From positions 576,001-640,000 of the forward strand of contig OZ239628.1 in NCBI GenBank assembly GCA_965195345.1: 64,000 nt of DNA, in the 5' to 3' direction. The position numbers were made by a program, and so were the translations under genes. Source of the DNA: an uncultured Thiomicrospira sp. GTDB lineage: Bacteria; Pseudomonadota; Gammaproteobacteria; CAKMZV01. Below, in pieces: positions 13,457-20,703 of this stretch (positions are counted from its first letter, which is position 1; each line of letters opens with the position of its first letter). The notes under the pieces are model-generated. The model saw only the letters and a list, made by a program, of their open reading frames with translations. It was not told the origin of the DNA and searched no databases.

Positions 13457-14629
13457 ATGCATCCAAAATTAGAAAGGACTATTGCAATACTGGGTGACTT
13501 GATTGCATTCCCAACGATATCTTCTGACAGTAATTTGGCGCTAATCACTTATATTGAGAAATTGGTTAAGCCGTTAAATCCAAAAATAAATTTCACCTAC
13601 GATACCAGTCAAGGAAAGGCAAATATTTTGATCAGCTTGCCTGATGAATCAGGGAGTACTCAAGGTGGTATTTTGCTATCTGGGCATACCGATGTGGTGC
13701 CTGTTGATGGGCAAGAATGGAAGCATGAACCTTTTAAAATGACCCAACGCGATGGAAAATTATTTGGGCGAGGCAGTTGCGACATGAAAGGATTTATTGC
13801 CGCATGTTTGGCGATGTTTCCTGATTTTGCCGTATTGATCCGCAAGCAACCGTTGCACATGGCGTTTAGTTTTGATGAAGAAGTGGGCTGTTTGGGTGCT
13901 GGGTTATTAGTGGAAGAAATGCGTCGTCTTGACATTGTGCCTAAAATTGCCATTATTGGTGAACCTACTGATATGCAAGTGATAGAAGGGCATAAAGGGT
14001 GCTATGACTATACAACCTATCTGCATGGATTGGCTGGGCATGGATCGTTACCCCATTTAGGCGTTAGTGCGGTTGAGTACGGAGTGTGTTATGCACATAA
14101 ATTGTTGGCTATGCAGGCTTATTTGGAATCTGCAGCACCCAAAGAAAGTTGTTTTGATCCAGCGCATACCACGTTAATTATTGGTGGAATACGTGGTGGC
14201 GTTGCCCATAATGTCATCGCTGATCATTGCGAAATTGATTGGCAAATGCGCCCCGTTCGTTCAGGGGATGATACTTATGTGCATGAACACATAGATTCGT
14301 ATGCCAAAGAAGAGCTATTGCCCAAAATGCAAGCTGTTTATAAAGACGCATCGATTGAGAAAAAAACATTGAGTGAGGTCGGCGGTTTAGAGCCTATGCC
14401 TGATTCTCAGGCGCGTGAAGTTGTTTGCCAATTAGTTGGTAATGATAAAACAGGTTTTGTATCGTACGGTACTGAAGCAGGGTTGTTTCAAGGGTTGGGT
14501 ACATCCTGCGTGGTTTGCGGTCCGGGATCAATTCGACAAGCACACAAAGCGGATGAGTTTGTCAGTGTTTCTCAGATGGAGCAATGTTTGCAGATGTTGA
14601 GTGCTTTAAAAAATCACCTGAATGCCTGA
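13457..14629 (+). CDS. M20 amidohydrolase, acetylornithine deacetylase (ArgE)-like
   Basis: LSGHTDVVP, GRGSCDMKG, FDEEVGC, IGEPT, GTEAG, AHKADE; AGGAAAG RBS before ATG 13457. Confidence 0.88.
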   Translation: MHPKLERTIAILGDLIAFPTISSDSNLALITYIEKLVKPLNPKINFTYDTSQGKANILISLPDESGSTQGGILLSGHTDVVPVDGQEWKHEPFKMTQRDGKLFGRGSCDMKGFIAACLAMFPDFAVLIRKQPLHMAFSFDEEVGCLGAGLLVEEMRRLDIVPKIAIIGEPTDMQVIEGHKGCYDYTTYLHGLAGHGSLPHLGVSAVEYGVCYAHKLLAMQAYLESAAPKESCFDPAHTTLIIGGIRGGVAHNVIADHCEIDWQMRPVRSGDDTYVHEHIDSYAKEELLPKMQAVYKDASIEKKTLSEVGGLEPMPDSQAREVVCQLVGNDKTGFVSYGTEAGLFQGLGTSCVVCGPGSIRQAHKADEFVSVSQMEQCLQMLSALKNHLNA

Positions 14630-15701
14630 ATACGCGCTTTGTTTTGTTGGCGGTGGACCAGCGACGCTTCACTATTTGTCGATGACCCCTCATCTTCACA
14701 AATGGCTCAATTTGGGGCTGGCAATTGTTTGTCCCGAACAACTTGGCTATGGACAAAGCCTCAACTACAACATCCATTCTAATGATCAAGCAAAGACGTT
14801 TATCGAAGGTGTGCAACCTGATTTTATCAAGGTGCTTGATTTCCCTTGGGATACCGATTTGGAATCATCACCTATGTTAGGTGCAGTGGCTTGGCCGATG
14901 TTTCGCAGTATCGGAGAGGAGGTTGCTAAACGTGTTAGCGCATCACCTAAAAGTAAAAAAATTGATGACTCAGTGGAAAGAATCATCATGAATAAGCAAG
15001 GTTTTACATTGCAGTTGGCAACAGGGTCTGAGATTAGGAGTAAAGTGGTTTGTGTGAATACAGGGGCTGGATTGGCTGATTCAATCTTTTCCAACGAGCA
15101 GCTACAAATATTGAATGGGTTGGCTATCAATGTAATCCACAGTGATGTGTTTCAGCGAAATGCTTACGCTGACTACATAATTAAGCAACACAACTTTGCT
15201 ATTATCGGAGCATCGCACAGCGCGATGTCTGCGAGTAAGATGATTAAACGTTTGAATTCTAAAGCGCGTATTGATTTTTTCTATCGGAGTGAACCTAATA
15301 GAAAGAATATTGCGAATCCGTACAAGGCTTGGTTTGATGAAATATTTGCTGGTAAGGTTGAAGGTGTTAGCAATCATTTAATTGAAGATATATCAGCGCT
15401 ATTTCCCCACCTAACACAATTTGATACGGTGGTGGAAGCTGTCGGGTATAAGCGGAATATAATTCCTTTGTACGATGAGAAAAATCAAAAAATAAACAGC
15501 ACTCAAAAGCCCGATATGTACGGTAGGATTCAAGACGATATTGATAATGAATTGAAGGGTTTTTTCGGTTTTGGGTTAATGAGACCTGTGCATGGATTAA
15601 ATCCCAAAACAATTGCACATCATCAGCGAATTGTTGAAGGATTTGGTTTGCTTGCAGAAACCAAAATTATGGATGGATGCTTTTCGGCTATTTTGCGATA
15701 G
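14622..15701 (+). CDS. Uncharacterised FAD/NAD(P)-binding oxidoreductase
   Basis: N-terminal VGGGPA Rossmann motif, NTG motif, second site IIGASHSA, EAVGY; overlaps the upstream gene by 8 nt. Confidence 0.65.
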   Translation: MPEYALCFVGGGPATLHYLSMTPHLHKWLNLGLAIVCPEQLGYGQSLNYNIHSNDQAKTFIEGVQPDFIKVLDFPWDTDLESSPMLGAVAWPMFRSIGEEVAKRVSASPKSKKIDDSVERIIMNKQGFTLQLATGSEIRSKVVCVNTGAGLADSIFSNEQLQILNGLAINVIHSDVFQRNAYADYIIKQHNFAIIGASHSAMSASKMIKRLNSKARIDFFYRSEPNRKNIANPYKAWFDEIFAGKVEGVSNHLIEDISALFPHLTQFDTVVEAVGYKRNIIPLYDEKNQKINSTQKPDMYGRIQDDIDNELKGFFGFGLMRPVHGLNPKTIAHHQRIVEGFGLLAETKIMDGCFSAILR

Positions 15702-15716
15702 CATTAGAGCAACGAA

Positions 15717-16373
15717 TCAGACTTCTGCTATTTCAATGATTTCGCTTTCAGCTTTTGCAAGTCGTATCCATTCGCAAACATCATCATCTTTTTGTGTTTT
15801 TTGTATGTAATCATTGACGACATCGCTTACAGGCACATTGTAGGTAACAAAGCGCGTCATTAAAGGGATGAACATGGCATCAGCGATGCTGAACGTTCCA
15901 TATAACCATTCATCCTTATGAGAAAATTGTTGTCTGCATTCAGTGACAATCCACTCGACACGAGCGATTTCTTTTGCGATTTTCTCCGTAATTTCCGCTG
16001 AACGATTTACAGCGCGTAAATTCATAGGCAAATTTTTGCGAATATGGATAAAGCCTGAATGCATTTCGGCGGCTATAGAGCGCGAGTGCGCTCTATAGCG
16101 ACACTCTTTTGGCCAAATATTTGGGTTCTTTTCAGCGATGTGCTCTGCTATGGCAAGAGAGTCCCAGACGGTCACTTCTCCGTCTTTCAATATAGGCACG
16201 TTGCCTGCTTTTGAATAATGGCTTATGTCTTTTTCAAATCCCTCAACAAACAGTGGAATACGCACCTCTTCAAAGAGGATGTTTGATTTGCGCATAACCA
16301 GCCACGCACGCATCGACCAGCTTGAATAATTGCGGTTTCCTATTATGAGTATTGGTTTATTCATTATTTTCAA
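15717..16373 (-). CDS. Glutathione S-transferase family protein
   Basis: IGNRNYSSWSMRAWL, VP.L, VWDSLAI, AEMHSGF, FSIADAMF. Confidence 0.9.
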   Translation of the reverse strand: MKIMNKPILIIGNRNYSSWSMRAWLVMRKSNILFEEVRIPLFVEGFEKDISHYSKAGNVPILKDGEVTVWDSLAIAEHIAEKNPNIWPKECRYRAHSRSIAAEMHSGFIHIRKNLPMNLRAVNRSAEITEKIAKEIARVEWIVTECRQQFSHKDEWLYGTFSIADAMFIPLMTRFVTYNVPVSDVVNDYIQKTQKDDDVCEWIRLAKAESEIIEIAEV

Positions 16374-16932
16374 TGTCGTTAAAAATTGCTTCTGATAAAA
16401 CTTCGTCTGTGCTTGCTATTTGACAAAATTCATCATTAAGGCTAAGTAAATGGATACGATGAATTTCTTCTGCACTAAATTGATTGCCTTCACTGTCTTT
16501 TCGGTCGAAAGTTGCGGTTGCATCCTCTACCAATACAACGACAAAGCCTAGATTACTCGCCATGCGCACGCTGGTGGAAACACAGTGATCTGTTGTTAAA
16601 CCAACGATGACCAAACGATGAATATTCTGGGTAAGCAAGTATTTCTCTAAATCGGTACCTATAAATGCACTATTGACGTTTTTGCGAAATACCATTTCAC
16701 CTGCCAAGGGTAATGCTTCATTTTTACAGGCATTGCCTGAATGATTTGGGTGTAAAGGTGAATTTTCCAACGTGGAATCGTGGTGGACGTGTATAACCTC
16801 ATTACCATTGCTGCGCCAGAATGCCAATAAACGCGCAATATTTATTTCAGCATCGAGGTTATTGCGCCGACCGAAGGTCTCTTTGGAAAACCCTTGCTGA
16901 ACATCAATAACTAATAGTGCTGCAGAGTACAT
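16357..16932 (-). CDS. Isochorismatase-family cysteine hydrolase
   Basis: LLVIDVQQGF, KNVNSAF.GT, GLTTDHCVSTS. Confidence 0.92.
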   Translation of the reverse strand: MYSAALLVIDVQQGFSKETFGRRNNLDAEINIARLLAFWRSNGNEVIHVHHDSTLENSPLHPNHSGNACKNEALPLAGEMVFRKNVNSAFIGTDLEKYLLTQNIHRLVIVGLTTDHCVSTSVRMASNLGFVVVLVEDATATFDRKDSEGNQFSAEEIHRIHLLSLNDEFCQIASTDEVLSEAIFNDIENNE

Positions 16933-17310
16933 AATTCGCTTAATTTATATGCTTGTAATTAGTGGATTTAAGAGATCAGAATCTTAAAGTTTGAACTTTA
17001 TAATTTGCCCTTATCAGAGCTTTGGGTGATTATCAGAATAACCAAAATCCTCGTTGACGCATTATAGACTACTTTGTGTATACGTACGTTGAGGTCATTT
17101 AAGAAGTTTATCAACGATCGATTGCTGATTGATAACCCCCATTCTACTTAAATAATGCGTGTTGTCTGCTTCCACTCTTGATGCTGCTTTAAAGGCTATG
17201 AGTGCTCGTATTCCCTTATAGTCCACAGGCTATGTTACCCTAGTGGCTTTTGTCAAACAATAGTGTAAAATGATTAAATCTCATCCAAATGATGGTGCTC
17301 ATTTTGGGGG

Positions 17311-17445
17311 AAGGTCAATATCAATGACCGTGTTGATGAAGAGAGGAGTTTGGAAGGCGCGATTGAAGGTTGGCAACAATCTTGAATCGCATTAAAACAA
17401 TAAACCAAGAAACTACTCGAGAGCTTGGAGGAATTGGGATATTAA
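17311..17445 (+). pseudogene. Remnant of the C-terminus of a type I R-M methyltransferase (HsdM)
   Basis: Translates KVNINDRVDEERSLEGAIEGWQQS*IALKQ*TKKLLESLEELGY* with stops at 17383 and 17401; resembles HsdM C-terminal helix; pairs with an HsdS-like fragment after the CBASS genes. Confidence 0.5.
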
Positions 17446-17460
17446 ATGGAGATATAAATT

Positions 17461-18411
17461 ATGAATTATCAAGAAAAACTCACGCAACTCTACAGAAGGA
17501 AAAATAATATTACAACTTCTACCTTTTCAGAATCAGTTGACTCTCTAACGCAAAGCAACATAAATGAAAATAAAGCACTGAAATATATTCGTAAAGCAAT
17601 GGAAGAAGTAGAAGATAACTATAGAAGAAAAACAATCGAAGCTGCAGTTAAAGTTGGTAATCACTTAAAAGAATTTAACTGCGAATTTAGATTACAGGGT
17701 TCTGTTACTACTCAAACAGAAATAACGCAAAGCAGTGATGTTGACCTAGTGGTTATTACAGATAAAGCTGTAACTATAGCGAAAGGATTAAGAAACGATA
17801 ATCCATATCAAGGCAACTTAACTGAAGATTTAAGAGTACTTAGATGTCAATGTGAGGAAAAACTCCGTAATATATATCAAGACGTTAAAATCAATGGCTC
17901 CAAATCCATTGAAGTCTACTTAACTAACCCTAAGAGGAAGGTAGATGTTGTAGTTGCAAACTGGTACAAAACGTATCATTTCAATCAAACTTCTATCGAA
18001 CATGACAAAGGAATCTATCTGTATGATAAAAAACAAGACGAACGTATTGGACCAGATTTTCCATTTTTAAGATCATACAAAATTAAGTATCACCAAAACA
18101 GAGAGAAAATCAGAAAGATGGTTCGATTTATGAAAAATTTTCGAGCAGATTTTGAAATACAAAATCTTACCAGTTTTCAAATTAATTGCATTGCATACGA
18201 CTTACCTTATGCTTTGTATTATTCCAATGAGGAAATTGAGTGGCTCAAAGAACTACTGGACTATTTGCCAGAGCAAGGTTATCACCAGGAAATTGATTCT
18301 CCGTGTAAAAAGGAAAAAGTACGAATTAATCATAACCCAACACTAGAGAAAGTATTAAGTAAACTCATCGAAGATGCGAGTTACATAGCATATGAAGACG
18401 CTATTTTTTAA
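17461..18411 (+). CDS. CBASS cGAS/DncV-like nucleotidyltransferase, CdnE clade (STING-associated type)
   Basis: QGSV.....I...SDVDLVV catalytic motif, RKVDVVVANWY, GIYLY, DFPFL, KMVRFMKNFRAD, LTSFQINCIAY; ATGGAG RBS. Confidence 0.9.
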   Translation: MNYQEKLTQLYRRKNNITTSTFSESVDSLTQSNINENKALKYIRKAMEEVEDNYRRKTIEAAVKVGNHLKEFNCEFRLQGSVTTQTEITQSSDVDLVVITDKAVTIAKGLRNDNPYQGNLTEDLRVLRCQCEEKLRNIYQDVKINGSKSIEVYLTNPKRKVDVVVANWYKTYHFNQTSIEHDKGIYLYDKKQDERIGPDFPFLRSYKIKYHQNREKIRKMVRFMKNFRADFEIQNLTSFQINCIAYDLPYALYYSNEEIEWLKELLDYLPEQGYHQEIDSPCKKEKVRINHNPTLEKVLSKLIEDASYIAYEDAIF

Positions 18412-19321
18412 TGAAAAAATAATGAACACAAAAAATGAAAAAATAATGAATACAAAAAATGAAAAAATAATGAATACAAAAAATGAAAAAATAATGAATA
18501 CAAAAAATGAAAAAAAGAAAATTTTTATTGGCTCTTCAAGTGAGGCCTTACAACACTTACAAGATATTAGAAAAAAACTTGAAAATGACTTTGAAGTAAT
18601 AGCATGGAATGATCCAGGAGTATATTCACTAAACAATCAATCCTTTCTTGATTCATTGATTAAACAGTCATATTTAGTTGATTTTGCCATATTTATAGCG
18701 GCTTCCGACGATATAACTCAAAGTAGAGGAAAAGAACAAAAATCAACTAGAGATAATGTGATTTTTGAGTTTGGTATGTTTTTACAATCTCTTGGTAAAG
18801 ACAGGTGTTTTATGTTAGTAGAGAGTGACAGCAGGGTTCTTTCAGATATGACTGGTATCACAATTAAAAAATTTTCAGACCCAATATCGCTTGACCACAC
18901 AATACATGAACTAAAAAATAATTTATTGCAAAGGAAGAAACATATACCGTCTCTGGTGACTACAGGATTAGCCTACGGTTACTATAAGAACTTTATTAAA
19001 AAACTTGCTGAGTGCGAAAAGTGTACAGCATTAACTATCCATTTAGGAAGAATATCTTTTAATCCGAAAGAATATAAAAAATATCAATCTGATGATTTTC
19101 CTGTCAGGCAAGCATTTCACAAATCAAATGATTGCGGCAGTTTTGTTGATTACCCAACTACATTAGAAGTAATAGATGATATTATTAATGATAAAAGTGA
19201 ATTGAGTGAAGATGAAAAAGAGCGCTATAGAAAAAGGGAGATAGGAAATTTTCAATTAGTGATTGAACGTAGAATGGAAAACGAAAGTTTTAAAAGCAAA
19301 GTTAACTTTTTATGCAGTTAA
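18392..19321 (+). CDS. cap12: CBASS effector Cap12, TIR-STING fusion
   Basis: TIR: KIFIGSSSE, DFAIFIA..DD...SRG, RDNVIFEFGMF...LG..R, SDMTGIT; STING: LAYGYYKNF, DYPTTL, REIGNF. Start ambiguous (18392 or one of the repeat-borne ATGs up to 18494). Confidence 0.9.
   Translation: MKTLFFNEKIMNTKNEKIMNTKNEKIMNTKNEKIMNTKNEKKKIFIGSSSEALQHLQDIRKKLENDFEVIAWNDPGVYSLNNQSFLDSLIKQSYLVDFAIFIAASDDITQSRGKEQKSTRDNVIFEFGMFLQSLGKDRCFMLVESDSRVLSDMTGITIKKFSDPISLDHTIHELKNNLLQRKKHIPSLVTTGLAYGYYKNFIKKLAECEKCTALTIHLGRISFNPKEYKKYQSDDFPVRQAFHKSNDCGSFVDYPTTLEVIDDIINDKSELSEDEKERYRKREIGNFQLVIERRMENESFKSKVNFLCS
18410..18515 (+). repeat. 24-bp tandem repeat, 4 copies plus a partial copy (AATGAAAAAATAATGAATACAAAA; encodes NEKIMNTK)
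   Basis: Read directly; the first copy carries one T>C change. Confidence 0.97.
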
Positions 19322-19322
19322 C

Positions 19323-19472
19323 AGAGAAATAAAAAGGTCGCGCATCGTGAAATTTGATGAGGTAGTAGCACAGCAAATATCAAAAAGAAGTAGTTCAACA
19401 GCAGATGATAGCTTCCGTCACATTGGGTTAGAGCATTTGGATTTAGGCAGCATTAATCGTCAAATAATCTAA
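19323..19472 (+). pseudogene. Remnant of the N-terminus of a type I R-M specificity subunit (HsdS)
   Basis: RIVKFDEVVAQQ...FRHIGLEHLDLGSI resembles the HsdS N-terminal pattern VKFGDVV...YIGLEHLD.GS; truncated after about 50 codons. Confidence 0.6.
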
Positions 19473-19487
19473 TACGGACTGCGTAGA

Positions 19488-19506
19488 GCAATCTATAAAA
19501 GATTGC
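19488..19506. terminator. Hairpin between the CBASS locus and the ald 3' end
   Basis: GCAATCT-ataaa-AGATTGC between convergent units. Confidence 0.45.
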
Positions 19507-19528
19507 CGGACGTTCGGTGTGTATGCTT

Positions 19529-20638
19529 TTAACTGATGACTTTTATAGGGTCATGATAGGGATAACCTAAAGCCTCACTGACCGCTTTATAAGTGACTTT
19601 CCCTGCGTGCACATTGAGTCCGTTTAATAAGTGCTTATCGGACTTGAGTGCTTTTAATCCATTACGCGCAAGGGCAAGTGTAAATGGTAATGTAACGTTA
19701 TTCAATGCATAGGTTGATGTACGCGGAACACTACCTGGCATATTAGCAACGCAGTAATGTACCACACCATCCACTACGTAAGTTGGTTCTTGATGCGTGG
19801 TTGCTCGAGATGTTTCAAAACACCCACCCTGATCAATGGCAACATCAACGACTACAGAGCCTTTTTTCATTCTGCTGATAAGATCTCTGCTCAATAATTT
19901 TGGTGCTGCTGCACCGGGTAATAGTACTGCGCCAATCACTAAGTCAGAATCAAGGGCAAAATTTTCAATCATTTCCATCGTTGAATATACGCACCGTAAA
20001 TTGCTGTAGGTGCGGTCTAAATCGCGCAATCGTTCAACGGAACGATCCATTATAGTAACATCAGCACCCATGCCAATCGCCATTTGAGCAGCGTTTTCAC
20101 CAACAACACCACCGCCTATAATGAGAACTTTGGCGGGTTCAACTCCTGGAACGCCGCCGAGTAGGGTGCCACTGCCACCGTGTGCCTTTTCGAGACAGTG
20201 TGCTCCTGCTTGGATGGAGAGGCGACCTGCAACTTCGCTCATAGGTGCAAGCAGGGGTAGGCGATTACTGTTATCAGTAACCGTTTCATAAGCGATAGCG
20301 GTAACACCGCTTTCCACTAACAAGCGTGTTTGTTCGGGGTCGGGGGCAAGATGTAGGTAAGTGAAAAGAATTTGTCCAGAGCGCAGCATCCGACATTCAT
20401 CGGGTTGAGGCTCTTTCACTTTGACAATCATATCAGCTTGACGATAGATGATCTCTGCGTTGTCAACGATAGTTGCTCCAATTTTTTGGTAGTCGTTATC
20501 ACTGATTCCTATTCCTTCGCCTGCTCCAGACTGGATATGTACTTGGTGATTGTTTCTAATAAGTTCAGCAACACTGGTGGGTGTTAAGCCGACACGATAT
20601 TCATGATTTTTAATTTCTTTTGGAGTGCCTATAATCAT
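19529..20638 (-). CDS. ald: Alanine dehydrogenase
   Basis: [53 protein letters not shown]. Confidence 0.97.
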
Positions 20639-20703
20639 TTTTTTAACCTTCAACAACGTTTTAAATTCAAGTGGATATGATAGATGGAAATATTTGATAA
20701 CAC

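Follow-up and report, generated by a model that had tools for sequence, protein, structure and literature searches.

What signal is read by a bacterial STING protein whose ligand-binding domain is far shorter than that of its relatives? The question is raised by two adjoining genes, cdnE and a gene for a TIR-STING (Cap12-like) protein, found in an uncultured Thiomicrospira sp. within a stretch of 64,000 nucleotides that is referred to here as the window. The product of cdnE is a nucleotidyltransferase of the cGAS/DncV-like kind (CD-NTase). The best explanation of the pair is a working, horizontally acquired type I antiphage signaling system based on cyclic oligonucleotides (CBASS), with cyclic di-GMP (c-di-GMP) as its most likely signal. 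From sequence comparison and structure models, this is given a probability of about 0.6. For the signal taken by itself, c-di-GMP is favored at rather better than even odds, another nucleotide is held to be unlikely, and an inactive system or one sensing a non-nucleotide cue shares the remainder. By its sequence, the pair is an undescribed short subtype of CdnE and TIR-STING CBASS that would work in the manner of Cap12 systems and lies outside the published lid classes and the Cap12 equivalog thresholds.

A short STING domain in a two-gene operon

The first-pass annotation described an AT-rich operon of a CD-NTase and a TIR-STING gene at 17461-19321, and the open reading frames (ORFs) lie at exactly these coordinates. 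Both are open and full length, and they share a strand and overlap by 20 nt. The guanine-cytosine (GC) content of the operon is 0.310 vs 0.396 for the whole window, the lowest value among 622 sliding segments of 1861 bp (5th percentile 0.368). The layout is that of a type I CBASS, with the effector gene adjoining the cyclase gene on the same strand and flanks that carry no Cap2/Cap3 or HORMA/TRIP13 genes.

The downstream ORF matches PF10137, the CAP12/Pycsar-type TIR (1.2e-27; 96.7 bits vs a cut-off of 24.7), and PF20300, the prokaryotic STING domain (35 bits vs a cut-off of 27.1), the latter in two pieces. The TIR catalytic motif RDNVIFE, first read as intact, is present. Residues of the NAD pocket have been named in SfSTING of Sphingobacterium faecium, where D110 comes from the opposing protomer, according to Morehouse 2022 (PMC9402430). 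The equivalents of F6, S10, W33, L47, R78, N80, E84 and D110 are kept in all ten members of the short clade described below, and that of F37 is Y, F or H.

The STING domain, counted from the VTTGLA motif as far as the C-terminus, is 121 aa long (117-121 aa depending on the anchor), and 51 residues separate the F of GYYKNF from the D of DYPTTL. These values agree with the estimates of about 120 and about 50 aa made at first sight. Domain lengths were surveyed in TIR-STING sequences, 81 of 83 of which could be parsed, from the stem motif to the C-terminus and from the stem motif to DxPTTL. The short clade (n = 10) measures 114-135 aa and 59-70 aa, respectively, the second value being 60 in the window protein. 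Four intermediates measure 134-138 aa and 72-75 aa, and all others (n = 67) 150-174 aa and 87-105 aa. Set beside the value of about 121 aa for the window protein, the domain of the 67 ordinary relatives is put at 152-173 aa. The minimal STING variant that had been proposed is real and intact. The Pfam prok_STING profile covers it only at positions 2-31 and 73-136 of 137.

The location of the missing length was examined in AlphaFold2 models of the window protein (pLDDT 85.1, pTM 0.74) and of an SfSTING-like relative, P0021 (pLDDT 80.6), both built from one alignment. The relative runs through alpha1, a beta-hairpin with beta1 (178-198), alpha2 (205-216), beta2 (220-224), a 12-residue loop, beta3 (237-243), a 9-residue loop, beta4, alpha3, an 11-residue loop, alpha4 and beta5. 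The window model runs through alpha1, beta1 (179-183), a 3-residue helical turn, beta2 (194-197), a 9-residue loop, beta3 (207-210), a 2-residue turn, beta4, alpha3, a 5-residue loop, alpha4 and beta5. In these models the loss is mainly of the post-stem (alpha1-beta1) ribbon, helix alpha2 and length in three loops, and the lid hairpin is kept in a shortened form. The ribbon is called an SfSTING-specific insertion by Morehouse 2022 (PMC9402430). The description of a shrunken lid thus holds for the hairpin itself, but most of the missing length lies outside the lid proper, and the model comparison rules out the lid as the site of most of the deletion.

The reduced domain retains the STING fold in prediction. 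The window model superposes on SfSTING (7un8_C) with Z 22.8 and a root-mean-square deviation of 2.8 A over 252 residues, and its STING part on STING-only crystal chains with Z 12.3-12.6 over 113-123 of about 123 residues. A profile alignment (hhalign) of clade against ordinary STING domains gave a probability of 99.2. The domain is modelled as the usual V-shaped homodimer. Predicted as two copies with c-di-GMP, it scored 0.79 vs 0.00 for the best of three controls, with an interface of alpha1 and alpha3, agreement of the runs in at least 75% of contacts and a partner pLDDT of at least 83, a result that may echo solved STING dimers. Of the calibration cases, 20 of 30 solved same-chain pairs and 1 of 23 single chains reached the mark, counts that hold only roughly here as a custom alignment and a small molecule were included.

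The short form is not confined to the window. A word-indexed search of 5.8 billion proteins returned 109 hits. The nine best besides the window protein are 267-290 aa long with 49-68% identity, after which identity falls to 45% or less and the STING-bearing hits measure 288-345 aa. There are 84 invariant columns among the ten clade members, including all the TIR pocket residues, F201, D253 and R239. At 49-68% identity these columns point to purifying selection, and the clade is apparently selected. A quick maximum-likelihood tree built from 83 TIR-STING proteins shows the clade as monophyletic (support 100) on a stem of 1.92 changes per column, and its sister-group placement has a support of 47. 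The cyclases follow the same pattern, with eight close relatives of the window CdnE at 52-66% identity forming with it a matching nine-member clade. For five of these the longest contig has the same length as that of a STING relative, and we read them as lying on the same contigs.

The clade is rare. When a profile of the short STING domain by itself was searched with HMMER, 14 of 1.84 billion representatives were hit at E <= 0.001. One of these is strong and full length (P0010, 1.3e-58) and represents the only 50% cluster of the clade; three others are fragments (52-98 aa) and the rest are weak (E >= 1.9e-07). Among 401 sampled genomes of the class, the short profile matched the window's genome only, as did Pfam prok_STING among 400 scored genomes of the class. 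Scans of genome and metagenome contigs with the clade alignment gave 63 and 271 pattern stretches, none of which is a relative. No paper describing such a short STING clade was found, though Ko 2022 and Hou 2023 may already contain such sequences in their supplementary alignments and trees. A literature search on TIR-STING together with Gammaproteobacteria found no paper, and no further search aimed at an earlier account of the clade was made.

For comparison, 36 full-length ordinary TIR-STING genes were taken from the best 80 of 541 genome hits, ranked by likeness to the query, and 31 of the 36 are of Bacteroidota origin. Two metagenome-assembled genomes (MAGs) labelled Bacteroides sp. and Tannerellaceae (L031, L032) carry identical TIR-STING proteins, which suggests recent transfer or binning overlap.

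Cyclase, lid and host: which signal?

The cdnE product matches the PADLOC cyclase model PDLC00807 (3.9e-66), and its closest solved chains are the STING-associated CdnEs 6wt9 (3.8e-30) and 6wt8 (4.7e-30). A family profile built from the window protein, seven close relatives and 17 ordinary STING-linked CdnEs (25 sequences) matches 6wt9 at 1.4e-104. In that alignment Q79, G80, S81, S92, D93, D95 and D162 are invariant, so the QGS (79-81), SDVD (92-95) and D162 motifs are intact, as had been noted. The ordinary comparison set comprised 28 CdnEs encoded directly upstream of TIR-STING genes in named genomes, and the window enzyme aligns with these end to end. An Asp of its D(F/Y)PF motif, D199, aligns with N166 in lid-1 of RmCdnE. 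That residue is described as the reader of the acceptor base, and an Asp at such positions is reported to favor guanine (PMC10442399). The Asp is kept in 9/9 short-clade and 27/28 ordinary enzymes. ElCdnE, another member of the family, is reported to produce c-di-GMP only.

On the receptor side, the c-di-GMP pocket has been described by Ko 2022 (PMC8748872). A Phe or Leu of the stem helix stacks on guanine and an Asp reads its N2. A lid Arg, found within RX(Y/F) in class I or RXR in class II, reads O6 and N7. The backbone of a lid His reads the Watson-Crick edge and also makes lid-lid contacts. An alignment of 43 rows was examined for these features, 33 of them ordinary (including three intermediates) and 10 from the short clade. 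The numbering of P0021 agrees with the published SfSTING residue numbers (E84, D110, R234). The clade keeps both the Phe that stacks on guanine and the N2-reading Asp. The F165 column is F in 27/33 ordinary rows and 10/10 clade rows (F201 in the window protein), and the D259 column is D in 29/33 ordinary rows, with E in the rest, and D in 10/10 clade rows (D253). From its motif position, this DxPTTL Asp would correspond to PcSTING D252 and FsSTING D169.

The host is also compatible with c-di-GMP as an alarm signal. Its genome is one contig of 1.92 Mb, 99.71% complete, with no GGDEF, EAL or PilZ match, and the same searches were positive in 8, 6 and 5 of 14 control genomes. None of the four family relatives gave a GGDEF match, and among 36 genomes sampled from other families of the class 29 had GGDEF, at up to 39 matches per genome. 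With all five family genomes devoid of GGDEF, signaling by c-di-GMP has been lost across a lineage of small (1.8-2.1 Mb) gammaproteobacterial genomes. The Ffh protein puts the host deep among Gammaproteobacteria, the best other protein being 66% identical and the named hits, MAGs and genera of that class, 56-60%. A 2025 review states that c-di-GMP signaling is nearly absent in Bacteroidota, and that its roles in defense and in housekeeping are believed to exclude each other (PMC13375341, citing Morehouse 2020). The present host fits this rule, and with it the enrichment of TIR-STING in hosts lacking GGDEF/EAL signaling that the first-pass annotation cited. Five hosts of ordinary TIR-STING outside Bacteroidota gave 0, 0, 1, 1 and 1 GGDEF matches, in MAGs of which the completeness is not established. 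They are assigned to Alphaproteobacteria, Verrucomicrobiae, Cyanobium, Rhodothermales and Minisyncoccia (L042, L011, L019, L035, L015), and one of the assemblies measures 7.2 Mb.

The first-pass annotation had proposed that the system may employ a different cyclic nucleotide so as to escape cross-talk with the c-di-GMP of the host. As the host lacks GGDEF, EAL and PilZ, there is no host c-di-GMP to avoid and the motive for a change of ligand is removed. The need for another ligand as an escape from cross-talk is ruled out by these absences together with that of GGDEF across the family. For the same reason c-di-GMP would be free to serve as an alarm signal, and a ligand change is not needed for the presence of the system.

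The proposed sequence of events is as follows. Phage infection would lead CdnE to make a guanine-containing 3'3' cyclic dinucleotide, most likely c-di-GMP. One molecule of this ligand would bind the cleft of the STING dimer, where it would stack on F201 of GYYKNF while D253 of DYPTTL reads guanine N2. The shortened beta-hairpin lid may then close over the ligand, with the invariant R239 near the dimer dyad in place of the canonical Arg. Closed dimers would stack into filaments, a step that is assumed here, to form a composite TIR active site from E126 and the equivalent of SfSTING D110. The resulting destruction of NAD+ would stop the growth of the infected cell.

Several results weigh against this explanation. 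SfSTING R234 is described as a highly conserved reader of the guanine Hoogsteen edge (PMC9402430; bioRxiv 10.1101/2025.09.04.674280). Its column is R in 30/33 ordinary rows and in 0/10 clade rows, which hold gaps or mixed residues. The Y236 column, Y, F or R in ordinary rows, is L in 9/10 clade rows and F in the window protein. The P237 column is P in 22/33 ordinary and 10/10 clade rows, and the H239 column is R in 0/33 ordinary and 10/10 clade rows. The clade lid reads LPVRxA(F/Y), a motif whose P, V, R and A do not vary among the ten members. Its Arg, R239 in the window protein, aligns with H239 and not with R234, five positions after the lost Arg, and the hhalign register agrees. Neither RX(Y/F) nor RXR is found in the window STING, which bears out the initial remark that the usual Arg/aromatic motif is not obvious. 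The clade also stands apart from 16 RPR sequences in the quick tree, and it belongs to neither published class. Across the dyad of the modelled dimer, R239 and Q240 (residues 59 and 60 of the fragment) contact their counterparts, and we read this as a lid that may still close, with the ligand read by an Arg from the other strand.

Further points against it come from elsewhere in the two proteins. At three tightly constrained positions the cyclase is replaced in 9/9 clade members. E87, the Glu of TQTEI, stands against H20/N5/S3 in the 28 ordinary enzymes, R204 against H16/S12, and C282 against N15/D12. Some of the three may line the nucleotide pockets. R55, H211 and F231 are likewise clade-only at otherwise constrained positions. 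The filament surfaces differ as well. Helix alpha2 is reduced to a 3-residue turn and the SfSTING interface residues are not kept. N208 falls in the missing helix, and V280 and E290 align with an invariant Glu and an invariant Arg at ORF residues of about 270 and 280 (window about 19199-19231), in a shortened alpha3-alpha4 loop where the alignment is uncertain. For this reason, any filament interface must differ from that of SfSTING. If the alignment is right, the Glu and Arg may form a compensating charge pair at a rebuilt interface. The NCBIfam Cap12 equivalog models score 158.3 and 134.8 bits, below their cut-offs of 450, which may be taken as a first sign of divergence.

These observations can be turned into an alternative in which the architecture is the same and the pair has co-evolved onto another signal, such as 3'3'-cyclic GMP-AMP, c-di-AMP, or a mixed-linkage or pyrimidine-containing dinucleotide. 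The relocated lid Arg and E87, R204 and C282 would then mark a third ligand class. Besides the loss of the guanine-reading Arg, the new invariant Arg, the Leu in place of the aromatic and the three cyclase replacements, the very long stem branch of the clade is in its favor. The literature also describes lid-linked ligand plasticity, one bacterial STING that binds c-di-AMP, and motif-less STINGs whose ligand is not established. However, the guanine-N2 Asp, the stacking Phe and the acceptor-lid Asp of the cyclase are all kept, and nothing in a host without c-di-GMP signaling would push the system off c-di-GMP.

The cyclase positions themselves also lose some of their force, as positions 87/204/282 already vary between the ordinary subtypes. 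One subtype reads H/S/D in 11 enzymes, plus L028 (H and S, its sequence ending before 282). The other reads (H, N or S)/H/N in 15, and one enzyme reads H/H/D. The H/S/D subtype includes a solved chain named as a c-di-GMP synthase. A change of signal is for these reasons regarded as unlikely, though it is the strongest of the alternatives to a c-di-GMP system.

The altered cyclase pocket that was first suggested had been drawn from TQTEI and SFQIN, set against TNTHI and SFDIN for known enzymes. Those readings hold for 6wt9, which has both, and 6wt8 reads TNTHI with SFHIN. The Glu of TQTEI is specific to the clade, and this part of the suggestion stands. Ordinary STING-linked CdnEs have E, D, Q, H or L as the variable residue of SFxIN, and SFQIN is ruled out as a mark of an altered pocket. 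In Chitinophaga polysaccharea (L006:1854-3995), two tandem CdnE genes of the subtypes N/H/N and H/S/D lie directly upstream of one TIR-STING gene.

A bolder proposal joins all of these features. It would have the clade as a third STING class, with the smallest natural domain in these searches, no alpha2, a ligand-reading Arg that sits on the second lid strand instead of the first, a CdnE pocket (E87, R204, C282) that makes a signal other than 3'3'-c-di-GMP, and a charge-paired (Glu/Arg) filament interface. As a whole this is considered doubtful.

It could also be supposed that the operon is decaying and that the shortened STING no longer signals. Helix alpha2 is lost, as are interface residues whose mutation in SfSTING (V280D or E290K) is reported to abolish filaments (Morehouse 2022, PMC9402430). 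Two contig variants from one sample would moreover break cdnE: in one run a 44-bp skip (17624-17669) with 5 bases of microhomology at a depth of 4.47, and in another run an added A in an A6 run (18027) at a depth of 5.03. Both variants are near or below the error-warning depth, however, and no differing letter separates the main contigs of either sample from the window. Both ORFs are full length, ten STING and nine cyclase clade members (49-68% identity) keep their catalytic and pocket residues, and the shortened domain folds confidently (AlphaFold2 pLDDT 85.1). Decay is therefore very improbable. The least probable account, suggested by the missing lid motifs and the reduced domain, is that the STING-like part no longer binds nucleotides and serves as a dimerization or filament scaffold for a TIR triggered otherwise, and this sits poorly with its strict co-occurrence and co-divergence with a dedicated cyclase and with the invariance of F201, D253 and R239.

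Setting of the operon

The features of the locus are collected in the table. The operon lies in an insert with a GC content of 0.329, vs 0.399 for the remainder of the window, between housekeeping neighbors: the hydrolase gene with a GST-like gene upstream, and the alanine dehydrogenase gene (ald) with an Lrp gene downstream.

Positions in the window of the operon, its parts and the genes that border it
Feature	Coordinates	Strand	Description
cdnE	17461..18411	+	CD-NTase, STING-associated CdnE group, 316 aa
cdnE catalytic codons	G80+S81 17698-17703; D93+D95 17737-17745; D162 17944-17946	+	
TIR-STING (Cap12-like) ORF	18392..19321	+	309 aa; probable start at the last in-frame ATG, 18494, giving 275 aa
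24-bp tandem repeat	18410..18515	+	4.4 copies, at the cdnE/TIR-STING junction
TIR NADase domain	18518..18877	+	ORF residues 43-162; catalytic Glu is E126
Shortened STING cyclic-dinucleotide-binding domain	18932..19318	+	ORF residues 181-309
Lid segment FPVRQAF	19097..19117	+	ORF residues 236-242; clade-invariant R239
Low-GC insert	16933..19528		Between the isochorismatase-family hydrolase gene and the alanine dehydrogenase gene
Isochorismatase-family hydrolase gene	16357..16932	-	Borders the insert upstream
Alanine dehydrogenase gene	19529..20656	-	Borders the insert downstream

TIR-STING was not found in the four family relatives of the host. DNA matches to the window occur in three of these four genomes and are chiefly to the ald gene, plus one 140-bp piece in G003. 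A tblastn comparison of 13 window proteins matched ald alone (54-62% identity), in three stretches of 12-15 kb. The island status of the operon therefore follows from its low GC content and its absence from the relatives.

The junction of the two genes carries a perfect 24-bp repeat (4 matches vs 0 expected in 100 shuffles), which begins one base short of where the cdnE stop codon ends and duplicates the start region of TIR-STING. Each full unit holds an in-frame ATG and encodes NEKIMNTK. Starts at the in-frame ATGs at 18392, 18422, 18446, 18470 and 18494 could add 0-34 Lys/Asn-rich residues to the N-terminus. In the nine relatives (267-290 aa), which have no such extension, the protein starts 1-9 residues ahead of the (K/L)(I/V/L)F(I/L)G strand, and the last ATG is probably the biological start. 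Because the unit is a multiple of three, a change in copy number would alter the spacing and the N-terminus and not the frame. The contigs of four runs (two samples of one study) all break inside the repeat.

The 530-bp spacer upstream of cdnE has no long ORF, the longest stop-to-stop frame wholly inside it being 55 aa. A scan of the window against Rfam gave no match, and a promoter and terminator scan gave 8 and 1 sites, respectively, not above shuffled sequence. An ORF of 69 aa (19263..19472) overlaps the end of the STING gene, extends into the downstream spacer and matches nothing in Pfam; its C-terminal part may resemble the N-terminus of a type I restriction S subunit, for which Pfam gave no support. 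Farther upstream, an ORF of 359 aa (14622-15701) has no NCBIfam match and a sub-threshold hint of Pyr_redox_2 (E 0.026).

Significance and comparison with known systems

STING is the one cyclic-dinucleotide receptor common to bacterial and animal immunity, and the published natural variation of its bacterial domain consists of lid motifs and lid extensions. A conserved natural domain that is 31-50 aa shorter and is still modelled as a closed-lid dimer would mark alpha2, the post-stem ribbon and the long loops as dispensable. Structural studies and the engineering of sensors could use it as a small scaffold, and its relocated lid Arg offers a natural test of the way in which ligand choice is set by the chemistry of the lid. 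The host is the only STING carrier among the sampled genomes of its class and belongs to a family that has shed c-di-GMP signaling. This lends independent support, outside Bacteroidota, to the view that c-di-GMP can serve as an alarm only in lineages that make no housekeeping use of it.

One of the closest known systems is SfSTING (PDB 7UN8, class I). It shares with the window protein the order of TIR then STING, the NAD-pocket and catalytic residues of the TIR domain, a CdnE gene immediately upstream, a stem helix that carries the stacking Phe, the Asp of DxPTTL and the overall fold. Its STING domain measures 167 aa vs 121 aa, however, with about 31% identity. The window STING lacks the beta-hairpin after the stem helix and alpha2, and its beta3-beta4 and alpha3-alpha4 loops are shorter. 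The equivalent of R234 is absent, H239 has become an invariant Arg, and V280 and E290 have become Glu and Arg.

FsSTING and CgSTING (PDB 6WT4 and 6WT5), of class II with the RXR motif and a "minimized" fold, come closer in size. They are compact, lack the SfSTING hairpin, are of the TIR-fusion type and have a partner CdnE, but they are still about 31-35 aa longer than the window STING. In the sampled relatives of the RPR type the STING domain measures 150-154 aa, and 88 residues lie between the two motifs vs 60 in the window protein. Their lid reads RPR, whereas that of the clade reads LPVR with its Arg out of register.

The STING-associated CdnEs that synthesize c-di-GMP (6WT8, 6WT9) and ElCdnE resemble the window cyclase in family, catalytic residues, the D(F/Y)PF motif with its acceptor-lid Asp, and position in the operon. 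They are 351-365 aa long vs 316 aa. The window CdnE does not have the insertion of about 25 aa that one ordinary subtype carries after the catalytic DxD strand, and it differs from these synthases by the clade-only residues R55, E87, R204, H211, F231 and C282.

Natural length variants around the lid are also represented by the long-lid STINGs such as LrSTING (PDB 8HWI), as described by Hou 2023 (PMC10739871). The change there runs in the opposite direction. An extra lid that regulates activity is described for the LrSTING type (PMC10739871; bioRxiv 10.1101/2025.09.04.674280), whereas in the window clade elements have been lost.

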